DNA of 7,518 nt from a virus (lineage: Duplodnaviria; Heunggongvirae; Uroviricota; Caudoviricetes), in IMG/VR virus record IMGVR_UViG_2675903313_000007, one strand, 5' to 3'. Shown here in pieces: positions 435 to 7,425 of this stretch. The notes beneath the pieces are model-generated. The model was not told the DNA's origin. It did no database searches and was given only the letters and a program-made list of their open reading frames with translations. Made by a program: the position numbers and the translations under genes. Numbering within the stretch: the first letter of the stretch is position 1; each line of letters begins with the position of its first letter.

Positions 435-3133
435 TATGCAAGCCTCACAATATAGTTAAATGCGATGTTTTTGACGGTGTTTTCCGCGTTACCAGCAGCG
501 TTAACGGTGATGGTGTGTCCATGTGAACCAATCGCAACGGAGTGCGTATGAGCACCAATACCGACAGTATGTGCATGTGCGCCTGCGCTTGCAGCAGTGC
601 CGGACAGCGAGTGGGTATGAGCACCATCTGATGATGTCTTCCCTGCATTACGAGTCTGGCCACTACCGCTTGTTGTGCTCATAATCCCCGCGCTTGGATT
701 TGAAATCGCGGTATAACCATTAGGGAAAATGCTCGTGTTCGTGCCACCAAATGCACCGGAACTCTTGTGTTGGTGCGCACCGGCACTATTTGCAGTCCCG
801 CTAATACTATGGGTATGCGCCCCGGTGTTATTCGTGGATTTGGTTCCGTAATCAAACGACGATGTGTTTTTCGTCCCCAAATCCGTACTGGATGCGCTGG
901 CGCTGTGGGTGTGCGATTTAATGCCGTCCTGTTCCTGAGACAATACGGCTCGACCACTGGCGGGTTTGCCCTTAATCGTCCAGCCACGCATATCAGGGAT
1001 CACGCCTGACGGATAAGCGGCTGCAAGTTTCGGGTATGCAGATTTGTCAAAAGTCTGCCCCTGCATCAGGGCATAGCCAGACGGAACGGTATCTGATGGC
1101 CACGGGATTGGTGCGCCAGGCGGATAAAACTGCTCTGATGGCGTATAGAGTGAATAAACTGTACCGTCCGTTAACCCTTCCGGCTTATTAGCAGAATATG
1201 CTGGTGACGTATGAATCGTCACGCTGGCATTACTGGTATAATCCCATTGAATATTTACACCAGTCGCATAATTTCCGATTGCAACGTAAATATCGTAAGT
1301 ATCACCAGATGTATTGACCCAGGCAAAATTTGTAAACCCTGTCGATGTGCGCTGCCATAAAGCACCAGTAATCCCCTTCGGATTACCATTACCTGCACGC
1401 AAAACAAGTTCAGATATACCTGCCTGTTGAGGTGAACCGACGTTAAATCCAGCGCCACCAATCAACGTAATTGAAACAACAGAACTCGCCTGTGGCATGG
1501 TTACCGTTGCTAATTTGAACCAACCAGCACCACCGCTGAATGACATTGTTGTTGAGTTAAGCGTACCAATATCTTTCGGCGTCAGTGTTATATCCTCCGA
1601 AAGCGCCTTACCATTCACCTTACGGTCAGAAGGTACCCGATCATTCGCATTGTCATTCGCTGCTTTAACTGCCTTCGGTGTCGCGGCAAGCGTTTCAGAC
1701 GTACTGTTGGTCGCACTGCTGAGCTGTACTATCCCCTTTTTCGTCGTGCTCGCATCCTCAAGCGCCACGGCGGATGCAATATCCTCTGCCCGTTTTGCCG
1801 CTGTCTCAGCGCGCGTTGCTGCGGATTCTGCCGTACTTTTGCTCTGTGCTGCCGCTGTCGCACTGCCAGCAGCCTCTGTCGCCTTTGTGGATGCCGTCGT
1901 GGCGCTGCTCTTCGCTGCTGACGCCTGTCTGGTCGCCTCATCTTTTGAAGCAGACGCCGATGATGCCGATGACGCCGCCGAACTGGCGGACGATGCCGCT
2001 GCCGTTTTTGAGGATTCTGCGCTGGTTTCCGACGCTTTCGCGTTCGTTTCGGATGTCTTCGCTGAGGAAGCAGACCTCGCTGCTGCGCTGGCCTGTTCAG
2101 TGGCTTCGCCAGTCTTCGTTGTGGCTGTTGAAGCGGATGATGCGGCGCTTTCTGCCGATTTTCCGGCGGCGGTGGCACTGACTGAGGCCTGCCCGGCACT
2201 TATTGATGCGGCACTGGCGGACGACGCAGCCGCTGTTTTTGAATCTGCCGCAGCTGAGGCGCTCTGTCCCGCTGCTGTTTCAGAAGACTTAGCGTTCGTC
2301 TCGGACGTTTTTGCCGCCTTCGCGGAATTTCCTGCCGCCGTTGCCGAGGAAGCTGCACTACTGGCACTTGATGATGCATTCGTTTCTGAAGATTTCGCTG
2401 CCTCTTTTGAGGCCGCCGCACCCCGTGCCGAGGTGGCAGCTTCTGACGCCTTCGTGGTCGCTGTGGATGCAGAAGTGGCTGCCGATTTTTGTGATGCTGC
2501 GGCATTCGTTTCTGACGTTTTCGCGGCACTGGCGCTGGTAGCTGCCGCGCTTTTTGATGACTCTGCAGCAGCAGCACTTTTTGCTGCTTCACGGGCCTTT
2601 GTCGATGCCGTTCCTGCGCTGGAAGACGCTGACTGAGCCGACGACGCGGCCTGTCCGGCTGACGTGCTGGCGGCACGTGATGAGGCTGCAGCATCGGTTG
2701 CATGAGTTGCCGCCTCGCTGGCTGATGCACTGGCATCGCTGGCTGATTTTTTCGCGGCTGCCGTATTCTGTGCAACCGCGGAGGCGTTACGTGACACCTC
2801 TTCTACCATCTGCTCAAAGCGGCGCAGTGCCTCCGGTCGGACATCATCCTCCGTCATGGCACCGAGAAAATCATTCAGCGTACCTGGTCTGGAACCTTCA
2901 TAGACGGTAATGGTCCCGGCATGTGAAGGCGGAAAACCTTCAACCAGCAGGGTGACGCTGTACTGACCATGCTCAACATCCATGCTGTAACGTCCGGCTT
3001 CATCCGGATTTTCAGAGGCCACCGTGTTCACCACCACCGTGCTGCTGGTTCGTCTGGCCTTCAGCACAATGGTGCAGTTCTGTACTGGTTTTCCTGTGCC
3101 ATCTTTAAGCACGCCAGAAATTTTTACTGTCAT
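434..3133 (-). CDS. stf: Side tail fiber protein Stf (899 aa, intact)
   Basis: ORF track 434..3133 minus, coordinates including the stop. The N-terminus [28 protein letters not shown]...[25 protein letters not shown] closely resembles lambda Stf, as does the C-terminus (GAPIPWPSD...[31 protein letters not shown]...[31 protein letters not shown]), which carries repeated G-[AS]-H-x-H motifs. An SD-like GGTGGA sits 6 nt upstream of the ATG on the minus strand. Confidence 0.92.
1769..2776 (-). repeat. Ala/Ser/Thr-rich low-complexity shaft-coding region of stf, with dispersed near-identical 22-26 nt motifs encoding (A)AK(T/S)SETNA
   Basis: Stf residues ~120-455 are almost entirely A/S/T/K/E. The motif occurs four times on the plus strand at 2039..2060, 2292..2317, 2396..2418 and 2503..2528, all encoding K(T/S)SETNA on the minus strand. 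Boundaries are approximate. Confidence 0.6.
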
Positions 3134-3144
3134 ACTTTTCCACC

Positions 3145-3180
3145 AATAAAAAAAGCCCGCAGCAGTGACGCCACGGGCTT
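3145..3180 (-). terminator. Candidate rho-independent terminator between lom and stf
   Basis: Read on the minus strand: AAGCCCG-(14 nt loop)-CGGGCTT, with the core GC stem at 3155..3159 paired to 3174..3178, immediately followed by TTTTTTTATT (plus-strand A-run 3145..3154). It ends about 12 nt upstream of the stf ATG. The loop is large, so confidence is moderate. Confidence 0.5.
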
Positions 3181-3284
3181 CAGGACAGTGTAACTTTACG
3201 TTTCCTCAAACGCAGTTCACCCCATAAGGTGGATGAACCTGCGTATCATAACAATATTTACAGAAGATAAATCGGCGTCTGTTG

Positions 3285-3884
3285 TCAGAAACGGTATCCG
3301 ATACCAACAATAAATGCATCCGTTCGCCAGTCGCCACTACCGGAACCTTCATAAGCAAGGTCAATGGTCACGGATTCGGTCGGGTTAAACTGCACGCCAG
3401 CCCCCCACGCCAGAGACGTGTTGCTGTGGCGACCGTCATCACTTCCGGTCAGCACATCGTGCGTTTTCCCCTTGTTGTCAGTTACGCGGAGATAATCCCC
3501 GGAGAAAGTCGACACACGGCTGTAAGCCACACCCGCCATCGCATACGCGCTGAACCATTCATTCACGCGTACAGACGGCCCCGCCATCACGCTGAACCAG
3601 CGGTTACGCACGGAATCTTCATGCCAGCGGGTATCGCTGTAGCGCGTTTTTTGCTCATCCTCAGCATTGGCATAACTGAAGGACGTAATCAGCCCCAGCG
3701 CGTCCGTAAACTCATAACGGTATTTCACGTTAATCCCGTTCAGATCATCACTACCGGGAACGTTCGTCGAGGCATGGAGATACCCCGCGCTCAGCGTGGA
3801 CTGATGTTCTGCTGCACTCGCTGGCGTAGCAGCGGCGACCTGCCAGACTACTGCGGACAAAATAACAGCACATAATTTACGCAT
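3285..3884 (-). CDS. lom: Outer membrane protein Lom (Ail/Lom/PagC/OmpX family, 199 aa) with N-terminal signal peptide
   Basis: ORF track 3285..3884 minus. The product begins MRKLCAVILSAVVWQVAAATPASA (signal-peptide-like) and ends AYEGSGSGDWRTDAFIVGIGYRF, with a C-terminal aromatic residue typical of beta-barrel outer-membrane proteins. Internal blocks (GINVKYRYE, SVMAGP, SAYAMAGVA) match lambda Lom as I recall it. An SD-like GAGAGG sits 5 nt upstream of the ATG. Position between J and stf is the same as in lambda. Confidence 0.92.
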   Translation of the reverse strand: MRKLCAVILSAVVWQVAAATPASAAEHQSTLSAGYLHASTNVPGSDDLNGINVKYRYEFTDALGLITSFSYANAEDEQKTRYSDTRWHEDSVRNRWFSVMAGPSVRVNEWFSAYAMAGVAYSRVSTFSGDYLRVTDNKGKTHDVLTGSDDGRHSNTSLAWGAGVQFNPTESVTIDLAYEGSGSGDWRTDAFIVGIGYRF

Positions 3885-3905
3885 AATTACCTCTCGCTTT
3901 TCTGC

Positions 3906-3932
3906 AATAAAAAAGGCGCCATTTCTGGCGCC
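3906..3932 (-). terminator. Candidate rho-independent terminator between J and lom
   Basis: Read on the minus strand: GGCGCCA-GAAA-TGGCGCC, a perfect 7-bp GC-rich stem with a GNRA-type tetraloop (plus 3915..3932), immediately followed by TTTTTTATT (plus 3906..3914). It lies 20 nt downstream of the J stop and ends about 21 nt upstream of the lom ATG. Confidence 0.65.
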
Positions 3933-3951
3933 CGTATCTGGGTTATAAAAT

Positions 3952-6900
3952 TCAGCTAATCGTGATGCCTGCAGTGGCTTTCTTCATCACCACAACCAGC
4001 AAATCGCTGATACTTGCTGTGGGATACCAGTTATTTACCAGCCATGCTGACACCGAAAACTCCAGTGTCATGTGACCGTGACCGGCAGGCATATCAATAA
4101 CACCACTGTAAATCAGCGTATTATCCAGCGCGGTACGGTTATAAATTTCAGCACCGTTTTTCCGCACTATCAGACGGCATGAGGAGTAAATATCAGTATG
4201 CTCTTTCTCATGTTTAGCGCCGCTGAATGCCACCGCCGGAATAACAATCTGCCGGTCAAACGGCTGATCGTCATAAACCCTGACGGTAATGGTTCCTGAT
4301 GGCCACCGCTCCGGTGCACGGGAGTCCCGGGGGAAAGCTTTGCCCACTGTTTTAACGAGATCGCCTTCAATCTGGTTCGCGGACAATTTTCCCAGAACCC
4401 GACAGTTCTCGTTAATCGTGACGTTGTTGAGCGTCCCGGAGTTCGCATTCACGTTACCGCTGATATCGGCATTTTTCGCCGTCAGCCGCCCGTCCGGTGT
4501 CAGGGAAAATGCCGGAGGATTACCGCCGCTGGTAATGGTGGGAGCCGTCAGATATTTCAGGAACACTTCATTCATAAATATCTGATCGCCCTGACCAACA
4601 AACATCGGCTTTGTGTTGCCATTCGCAGGATTAATCATCGCAATCCTGTCTGCCGCCAGCAGCACCTGACTCTGCATTCCTGCTGGCGTATTCTCAATAC
4701 CGGCACCGATACCCGCAATATAAAGGCGTCCGTCCTGCATCTGCTGCAGTTTCACGGCCCACATGCTGTTCAGGTTATTATTTGTATCAACCTGAACTTT
4801 CTGTATCTGCTGGATTGCCGCACTCTGATTTTCCAGTTTTTTATTGACGGTCTGCGTGATTTCATTGCTGACATTCGTAATGGACGTCCTGATTTCAGCC
4901 AGGTCCGGCGCAAGCTGACCGTTATCAATCTGCGTCCACAGCTCCTGGGCCAGATGTGTTTTCCCGATTTCTCCTTTGAAAAAATCCAGGTAACCTTCCG
5001 CATCATCGCTCGCCCGACCGACAGCCTCCACGAATGCCGATTTGCCAACAGTATTCACACTGCGGATATAAAAATAATAATCATGGCCCGGTTTGATATT
5101 GATACTGGCAGCTATCCAGTACAACGCCGAGCCAAGATAGCGGGCTGCGGTTTCAACCTGCCTGATATCCGCAATCCGCTTTTCCGAGAACCAGAACTCA
5201 AACTGTACCGTCGGGTCATAAACGGCAAGATGTGGCGTTGCGGTTATCTGAAAATAGCCCGGCGTCAGCTCAATCCGCGACGGTGCTGCCGGTGCGGCAA
5301 TCCGGAAGGTGGTGGTGGCAGGTTCACCCTGCTGGCCATAGCTGTTTATCGCCCGCACCGTCAGGGTGTATTCCCCGAGCGGCAGACCACTGAAACGATG
5401 CTCTGTATCCGCAGTGATAGCGGTGGTCACCAGACGGCTGTCTTCTCCGCTTCCGCTGGTCAGTCGCAGACTGAAGCGCACCCCCTTCACCACCCGCGGC
5501 GTGTCCCATTTCGCCTGTGCCAGATACTGGCCGTCAGCTGCGCTCACCTCCACCGTCAGGTGCTGCACTGCCGGTGGGATGACGCTGTTCAGGGAGCCTG
5601 ACTGCGGCTCAAAGCGGGCACCGTTATCCACGATGGCTTCTTTTTCCGGTACGTGCTGCACCGCCGTGATGGCAAAGGTGCCGTCCGTGTTTTCCCGGAC
5701 GGAGACACAGCGGAACAGGCGACGGCGCAGTGACGGCAGGGAGAGTCCCCACACCCCGTATGTCTCCACACCATCAGGCAGGGTACTGACCTGTATCCGG
5801 TCCGGCGCGGGGTGTGCGGTGATGTCCACACTCACCGGCTTACCGCTGCCGTTAATCAGGTTCACCGCCGATGTACCTGTCTCCGGCAGGGTAACCTCAC
5901 GGTCCAGCGTCAGGGTGCGGGTGGCAGCATCAATGGACAGGACACGTCCGCCGGTCATAGTCCCGGCATAGTCGTTATCACAGATTTCAATAATGTCACC
6001 CGGTGTGTGACGCAGCCCCTGTGACCCGAGCGTGAAGTCCACCGTCTGCGTTTCCAGCAGTCCGGTCTTTATCACCCACAGACCTGCACGGTGAGCCTGA
6101 CCGCGGCTGGTACAGCCAAACGCATCCATCTTCAGCAGATTGCGCCCGTAGCGCAGTATGGCTTCCGGGTCTTCCACCAGTTCCGTGGAGGTCTGCCAGC
6201 CGTTCTGCGGGTCGGTGTAATTCACCTCCACCGCCGTGTGCCGGTCCTTCAGGGCACTGAAGCTGTAGCGGAACCCCACGCCGTTATCATCCACCACCAC
6301 ATCGCTGTTGGTGTACGGCCACACCACATCCGACGGGCGGTCCTGAACGAACGTCAGCGTCTGACCGTTCCATACCGGCATACAGCGCATCGCAGAGCAG
6401 AAATCACTGAGAACGTCCCACGCCTTACGCTGTTGTGCCAGGTACGCATTAAAGGTCATCCGCGGCTCGGTCCCCCCGAAACCATCCGGGACCGTCTGGT
6501 CGCAGTACTGCCCGATGGCATACAGCGCCCACTTGTCCACATCCGCCGCCCCCAGACGTTTTCCCATGCCGTAGCGCGGGTGAGTCAGCATGTCCCACAG
6601 GCACCAGGCCGGGTTGTTGCTGTATGCCGGTTTCAGACTGCCGTCCCAGATACCACTGTACGTGCGTTTTTCCGGGTCATAGTTTGACGGCACCTGGATG
6701 ATGCGACCGCGGATATGGTAGTTCACCGTCATCTGCTGGCCGCCGAACTGCTCCGCATCCACCTGCAGCCCCACAATGGCCGTGTTCGGGTAGCACTGTT
6801 TCACATCGATGATTTCGGTGTATGACGACCACAGCGTCTTATTCTGCAGCTGGTCCGTGGTGCTGTCCGCTGTCTCCCGGACCATCCGGATGTTAAAAGG

Positions 6901-7425
6901 ACGGGGAGGCAGATTATCCAGAATCACCGACGCCAGAAACTGCGAGGTGGTCTTGCCGTTAATGGTGACATCCTTTTCTGTCACCCAGTTACCGTTACGC
7001 TGTAACTGAATCAGCAGGCGGACGGATGTCGGGTTTCGGTCACCCTTTGACGTGGTCTGCACCAGTGACTGCACCCCGAAGGTAACCCGCAGGCGGTCAA
7101 TGTTCGCGGACGTAATGGTGCGCGTCACCGGTTTTGCCTTCGTCACTTCCACGCCCAGTCCGGTTTCAGCACCGGAGGACTCAAAGCCTTCCGGTGGTGT
7201 CTGCTCCTGCTCCCCGGCGCGCCAGACCGCGGTCACACCGTGTATCACGGGATTACCGTCCGTGTCCGTCAGCGGGGTTTTGTTCACCAGAATACTCTGC
7301 AGGCCTTTCACCGGGCCTTCTATCGGTCCCTCACCAACCGCATCAATCACGCTCATCATCTGCGTGGATTTGAGATTATCCTTCGCCTCGCGCGGTGTGT
7401 GCGCCCTGCCGCCGCCTTTGCCCAT
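3952..7425 (-). CDS. J: Central tail fiber / host specificity protein J (tail tip protein, 1157 aa)
   Basis: ORF track 3952..7425 minus. The N-terminus [39 protein letters not shown] is near-identical to lambda gpJ, and long internal stretches match it as I recall it (e.g. [54 protein letters not shown] and [38 protein letters not shown]). An SD-like GGGGAAGG sits 4 nt upstream of the ATG. Confidence 0.95.

Follow-up and report, generated by a model that had tools for sequence, protein, structure and literature searches.

In phage lambda, cryo-electron microscopy has placed the four bottom loops of the immunoglobulin-like (Ig-like) receptor-binding domain (RBD) of the tail tip protein J (gpJ) in the extracellular lumen of each LamB monomer, and binding spreads the bottoms of the RBDs and twists the beta-prism, after which the helical shaft is flipped and the tip opened (PMC11101478). 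Two other described receptor-binding ends, 1A2 and A8, are natural gpJ C-termini placed on lambda J at position 964, both giving OmpC-specific chimeras (Brödel et al., Nature 2024, PMC11338833), with the 1A2 C-terminus taken from an Escherichia coli strain of a private collection (PMC11338833). For phage phi330, plaques were lost on an ompC knockout and regained on complementation (PMC12502783). Here the analysis was directed at gene J in a 7,518-nucleotide (nt) stretch of caudovirus DNA (IMG/VR record IMGVR_UViG_2675903313_000007; the whole stretch is hereafter the window), for which an earlier note had proposed a divergent J C-terminus and a receptor other than LamB. The C-terminal RBD of this J is very probably an OmpC-binding allele and not a LamB-binding one, because residues 991-1157 match the 1A2 graft, which retargets lambda particles from LamB to OmpC.

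On its family model, domain series and gene neighbourhood, J was assigned as a lambda-type tail tip attachment protein (TipJ/gpJ). The protein scored 2363 bits against the NCBIfam model NF049904 lambda_TipJ (cutoff 1950), with residues 1-1157 lying on profile positions 1-1163, and the Pfam domains FNIII-A_GpJ, Phage-tail_3, Ig_J, Ig_J_second, Phage_Tail_Tip and Ig_GpJ_C were all above cutoff and in lambda's order, Ig_GpJ_C (PF12421) covering residues 1027-1157. Every gene of the window is on the minus strand, the end of an upstream tail gene precedes J, and the order I - J - lom - stf - tfa on one strand is the same in the window and in lambda (Table 1). Lambda gpJ (PDB 8xcj/8xck, PMC11101478) therefore shares with the window protein both the family and the domain order of hub, FNIII, helical shaft, beta-prism and Ig-like RBD. 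By homology to lambda, J would be trimeric, closing the tail tip and opening on receptor binding, and an Ig-like fold of the RBD is suggested by gap-poor sequence matches of the C-terminus to the solved structures 9wca (A8 gpJ 713, E=3e-83) and 8xcj (lambda J with LamB, E=1e-61).

Identities to lambda were taken from BLASTP and global alignment, with gpJ of NC_001416 as the reference. The whole J shared 68-69% amino acid (aa) identity with lambda gpJ, with values of 72.2% for residues 1-985, 88.2% for the junction between beta-prism and RBD (residues 941-1008), 46.8% for residues 986-1157 and 40.7% for the RBD proper (residues 1009-1157). A sharp identity break was located directly after ...NVTINENC, at residue 1009 (window position 4401), and a second divergent block was found in the helical shaft (residues ~809-900, window 4726-5001), with 45% identity to lambda and a 28-aa insertion. 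The difference from lambda's C-terminus that the earlier note had described was thus borne out by the alignments, and the last 250 residues, for which the note had set an identity above ~90%, LamB contacts included, as the contrary result, gave 55.4%; with this value and that of the RBD, the domain falls outside the lambda-type LamB-binding RBDs. The interval given for the divergence (3955-4470, residues 986-1157) does contain the peptides quoted but begins too early, its first 23 residues belonging to the conserved junction, and the first ~985 residues, described as tracking lambda closely, do not do so evenly, given the shaft block. The residue-level LamB contacts were sought in PMC11101478, where loops L1-L4 are named without residue numbers.

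The comparison with 1A2 required some care, as its DNA was taken from the supplement of PMC11338833 as machine-read (optical character recognition, OCR) PDF text with single-base indels. The printed 1A2 and A8 sequences were located by searching with the start of lambda J, and J was compared with the 1A2 DNA in a frameshift-aware protein-to-DNA dynamic programming alignment. Lambda G964, the 1A2 fusion point, aligned with window G990, and 159 of the 163 cleanly read codons were identical between window J and the graft, one of the four mismatches being an impossible internal stop; the corresponding value for A8 was 69.7%. Calibration on the lambda-derived part of the printed 1A2 sequence, for which the correct letters are available, gave an OCR error of 3.2% per nt consisting of indels only, and thereby an expectation of ~16 errors in the 502-nt graft compared with 12 imperfect codons seen. 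The deviations from 1A2 are therefore explained by the measured indel rate, and residues 991-1157 of window J can be equated with the 167-residue graft within the reading accuracy of the text. The printed 1A2 DNA shared only 69% nucleotide identity with the window and was therefore probably recoded. Plain tblastn against the OCR text returned 60% and 47% identity, values that were misleadingly low from frameshifts and were superseded by the frameshift-aware alignment. Searches of the Eligo supplements with peptide strings and with the window's own DNA gave no match, the sequences there being printed as recoded DNA with OCR indels. Outside the graft the two proteins differ: the window holds a natural full-length gene whose hub and prism share 76% and 77% identity, respectively, with lambda and whose shaft is the longer, divergent one described above.

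The published delivery data for 1A2 bear directly on its receptor. In an MG1655 lamB/ompC double deletion, 1A2 delivery was 2% with K-12 OmpC and ~98% with EDL933 OmpC, and in wild-type MG1655 (LamB+, K-12 OmpC) it was 5.2% (multiplicity of infection (MOI) 50) versus 97.7% with wild-type lambda J (PMC11338833). In the Extended Data Fig. 1 source data, 1A2 was efficient (>=76% cells positive for green fluorescent protein at top MOI) via 20 of 23 natural OmpC variants, that of O157:H7 EDL933 included, and failed on G1, G2 and G40, and for OmpC G1 the 1A2 and A8 values equal the ones that Extended Data Fig. 2 lists under K-12 OmpC; A8 covered G1 and G2 and was weaker than 1A2 on G55, G56 and G67 (PMC11338833). 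In the K-12 background, 1A2 delivery is thus set only by the OmpC variant supplied, LamB is unused and OmpC variants are discriminated. By analogy with the chimera, the native J of this prophage would be expected to behave in the same way, and the earlier proposal of a receptor other than LamB is supported by the match to a graft that has lost LamB delivery. OmpC was already among the candidate receptors listed in the earlier note.

It might be argued that the C-terminus, though changed by drift, has kept lambda's LamB as its receptor, since it has the fold family and length of the lambda RBD with one gap in 150 columns, and the loop at residues 1034-1042 has lambda's length and its WPSG motif. 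However, the RBD identity is only 40.7%, the 1A2 graft reaches few LamB+ MG1655 cells where wild-type lambda J reaches nearly all, and 1A2 delivers to lamB-deleted cells when EDL933 OmpC is provided, making this explanation scarcely credible. A second alternative is that the native J uses a receptor other than OmpC and LamB (for example OmpF, FhuA or BamA), or needs a second protein receptor besides OmpC. Upstream of residue 991 the native J is indeed unlike the tested chimera, and a few tail tip mutations are sufficient to give lambda J the use of OmpF (PMC11101478, PMC13190303). Yet K-12 cells lacking LamB and carrying K-12 OmpC together with OmpF, FhuA and BamA are those transduced by 1A2 at 2%, a change of OmpC variant alone raises delivery to ~98% with no other K-12 surface protein having substituted, and the receptor is determined by the grafted 167 aa, residues that are present in window J. 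A non-OmpC or dual receptor is accordingly regarded as very unlikely, and OmpC is retained as the receptor of this allele.

Information on the receptors of natural phages with this allele was also sought. The SNIPE paper (PMC13190303), the source of the PhiR phages, assigns no J receptors, the genome announcement of phages 21 and 434 gives none, and no receptor for phage 21 was found in the literature examined. Reference 47 of PMC12502783 was considered as a receptor source and set aside, as it concerns a virulent O157:H7-specific phage and tail fibre genes, not lambdoid J. The hosts named in the deposits of PhiR5_1 (99% RBD) and PhiR49_2 (89% over a 172-aa query) are E. coli C and ECOR13, respectively, neither being K-12 MG1655; these hosts fit the non-recognition of K-12 OmpC by 1A2, although only circumstantially.

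A seven-allele RBD alignment indicated where variant discrimination may reside. Conserved motifs of the beta-core (DD..FDRQ, NG..I, (V/I)DMP.G.G..L.F and KK...GI) were recovered, and the differences between the window and A8 were concentrated in indel-bearing segments. The loop at residues 1034-1042 is 4 residues longer than in A8/phi330, and the short loop at 1073-1077 is 6 residues shorter than the phi330 hairpin with which it aligns (E953-S962, ENFNSNNQQS), a hairpin placed inside the OmpC barrel by an AlphaFold3 prediction (PMC12502783). The segment at 1130-1135 aligns with phi330's second predicted OmpC-contact hairpin (ANNWTP), and the NNW.P motif within it is common to the window, A8, phi330 and phage 21 and is not found in lambda or 434. 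These three segments are likely to decide which OmpC variants are recognized. By analogy with lambda J-LamB, and presuming the same loop-insertion mechanism, each of the three Ig-like RBDs of the J trimer would reach with its bottom loops into the mouth of one OmpC monomer from the extracellular side, and the binding signal would then travel through the beta-prism and the helical shaft until the tail tip opens for DNA ejection.

Several points weigh against the OmpC assignment or its structural details. Delivery was measured for chimeric particles, with a lambda background and an engineered side fibre, and not for this prophage, whose own J differs from the tested chimera in its hub and is longer in the helical shaft. 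In the OCR text of 1A2, 9 of 172 codons were not cleanly readable, so that a true substitution there is possible. The loops were assigned from alignment indels and from another group's AlphaFold3 model of phi330; a single-sequence AlphaFold2 model of residues 956-1157 had a mean predicted local distance difference test (pLDDT) score of 49, too poor to use, and no OmpC-bound structure of exactly this RBD allele was found.

The distribution of the allele among phages was examined by tblastn of the 172-aa C-terminal region against 50,697 phage records. VT1-Sakai (Sp15), several PPompW prophages and vB_EcoS-783R2 carried the region at 100% identity. PhiR5_1, 2G7b and many Stx2a/Stx1a phages followed at 98-99%, with phage 21 and phi330 at 64-68% and lambda and 434 at 44-47%. 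For the RBD alone (residues 1009-1157), the corresponding values were 99-100% for VT1-Sakai, PhiR5_1 and 2G7b, 68% for phage 21, 62-63% for A8/phi330 and 42% for 434. A8 and phi330, whose RBDs share 99% identity, resemble the window allele in RBD family, in the OmpC receptor, in the NNW.P segment and in an 18-residue C-terminal sequence (PDB 9wca/9wcb, 'A8 gpJ 713'; PMC12502783), but in addition to the loop differences K-12 OmpC is accepted by A8 and not by 1A2. The knockout and complementation results for phi330 lend the OmpC assignment independent support. Phage 21 carries the next closest named allele, although its RBD groups with A8/phi330 (81%) and not with the window. The RBD of 434, also a lambdoid J domain targeting OmpC (PMC12502783), differs from the window by several indels, and the 434/ev099 RBDs can be placed by sequence as a separate OmpC-binding lineage. 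The whole window was not matched at >=99% over its full length by any complete E. coli genome or phage record, the best reaching 96-97%.

Comparison of five J segments across eight phages, together with DNA identity in 60-nt bins, showed that the parts of J do not share one set of relatives. Phages with a 99-100% RBD (2G7b, PhiR5_1) have a hub, shaft or prism only 45-82% identical to the window: the J of 2G7b combines its RBD with a 75% hub and a short lambda-type shaft allele, and that of PhiR5_1 with a 97% hub and a 55% shaft. Conversely, phage 21 and ev099 share the shaft and prism with the window (95-96% and 95-97%, respectively) and have RBDs at 68% and 44%. In the bins, DNA identity rose from 62% to 90-100% at ~residue 941 for 2G7b, rose at ~residue 981 for PhiR5_1 and fell from 90% to 57% at ~residue 1021 for phage 21. 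These patterns identify J as a recombination mosaic with a separate history for each segment and breakpoints at ~941-1020 inside the conserved junction, a recombination hotspot, and the RBD module as a mobile cassette that is swapped among lambdoid phages by recombination in this stretch. The graft point of Brödel et al. lies in the same junction (PMC11338833). Compared with lambda, 434 and 2G7b, the shaft (809-900) has 28 additional aa, and it shares 96-97% identity with phage 21 and ev099; in lambda, receptor binding makes the shaft flip and part of it refold as beta-sheet (PMC11101478), and the four-heptad extension could alter fibre length or triggering. The J of VT1-Sakai/Sp15 (record positions 647-4119) shows 100% identity to the window in RBD, shaft and prism and is annotated as two coding sequences by mutation, whereas the window J is intact.

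The last observation raises the question of whether J is a relic of a defective prophage, with no current role in adsorption and an allele uninformative on live host range. The splitting of the VT1-Sakai copy, with its identical RBD, would fit this explanation, and since E. coli genomes hold several RBD copies (median 2, maximum 9), not all of these can be active phages; a defective state is frequent among lambdoid prophages of enterohaemorrhagic E. coli. Against it, the window J is one uninterrupted 1157-aa open reading frame (ORF) with all domains, has intact lom and stf genes and the beginning of tfa as neighbours, and has near-identical RBD counterparts in phages isolated as particles (PhiR5_1, 2G7b and vB_EcoS-783R2). 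The relic explanation is considered rather unlikely, and it concerns the activity of the prophage and not the ligand of the domain.

The prevalence of the allele was assessed by megablast of a 450-bp RBD segment against 5,426 complete E. coli genomes. The segment was matched in 3,378 of these (~62%), with 994 records at >=99% and a median of 2 copies per genome (maximum 9), versus 98 genomes for the lambda RBD segment, largely K-12 and BL21(DE3) laboratory strains. The 'divergent' allele of the window, and not that of lambda, is therefore the usual one in E. coli. O157:H7 chromosomes carried up to 8-9 copies of the RBD segment, and 31 matches were on plasmids.

Table 1. Positions of gene J, its C-terminal segments and the neighbouring features in the window.
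Feature	Position	Strand	Remarks
Gene J (tail tip attachment/central tail fibre protein)	3952-7425	minus	Uninterrupted ORF, 1157 aa + stop
RBD module, J residues 1009-1157	3955-4401	minus	Divergent from lambda; Ig_GpJ_C match
J residues 991-1157, equivalent of the natural graft in gpJ 1A2	3955-4455	minus	Frameshift-aware alignment to 1A2 DNA
Conserved junction between beta-prism fibre and RBD, J residues 941-1008	4402-4605	minus	88% aa identity to lambda; identity switches in 60-nt bins
Variable loop D1034-P1042 (DSRAPERWP)	4300-4326	minus	Putative loop, from indel pattern
Short loop E1073-T1077 (EKEHT)	4195-4209	minus	Aligned with phi330 hairpin
Segment V1130-P1135 (VNNWYP)	4021-4038	minus	Aligned with second predicted phi330 contact hairpin
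Terminator-like hairpin GGGCGCC-AGAAAT-GGCGCCT then TTTTTATT	3914-3933	minus	Directly after J stop; consensus scan
lom-position gene, full-length Ail/Lom family	3285-3884	minus	Ail_Lom, E=9e-125; 41.5% to lambda Lom
Second terminator-like GC-rich hairpin + T run	3152-3181	minus	After lom; consensus scan
Side tail fibre gene (stf), 899 aa	434-3133	minus	ORF + Pfam (phage_tail_N/Collar)
Partial tfa (tail fibre assembly), Tfa N-terminus	1-437	minus	Start at 437 next to stf stop; runs off window edge

Phages 21 and 434 have annotated terminators at the same post-J position as the first hairpin of the window, and the two hairpins may bracket lom as a separate transcription unit. The lom-position gene is assigned as a different allele of the lysogen-expressed outer-membrane protein Lom. 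The stf product is longer than the matching lambda orf-401 and orf-314, with an N-terminus 83% identical to orf-401 and a C-terminus 69% identical to orf-314; residues 110-470 consist of ~72% Ala/Ser/Thr, and His-rich repeats of the GAHTHS type are found near the C-terminus. No DNA repeats were detected by Tandem Repeats Finder in the Ala/Ser-rich stf gene. The first 60 residues of Tfa are identical to lambda Tfa at all but one position. Lambda Stf binds OmpC; should the window stf product share this property, one porin would be the common target of side fibres and tail tip. Competition of this kind between side fibres and tail tip is a concern voiced by Brödel et al. (PMC11338833).

The OmpC specificity of this J module has already been published and the allele is common, so that the window provides a routine instance of a J allele whose receptor has been determined and exploited for particle engineering against O157 and gut E. 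coli. The comparison links the private-collection allele 1A2 to public prophages and phages, namely VT1-Sakai (Sp15), the PPompW prophages, PhiR5_1 and 2G7b, and J proteins with the same 43-residue C-terminal end can be labelled OmpC-specific (1A2 type) in annotation and not assumed to use LamB. The prevalence figures also indicate that lambda is unusual within its family in the receptor it uses. As a tentative and somewhat doubtful extension, the 1A2-type RBD may dominate the tail-tip specificity of natural E. coli lambdoid prophages, and its discrimination among OmpC variants could drive polymorphism of the OmpC surface loops and decide which lineages acquire Stx and other lambdoid prophages bearing this J. 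If so, the window would be an ordinary example of a cassette with population-level importance.

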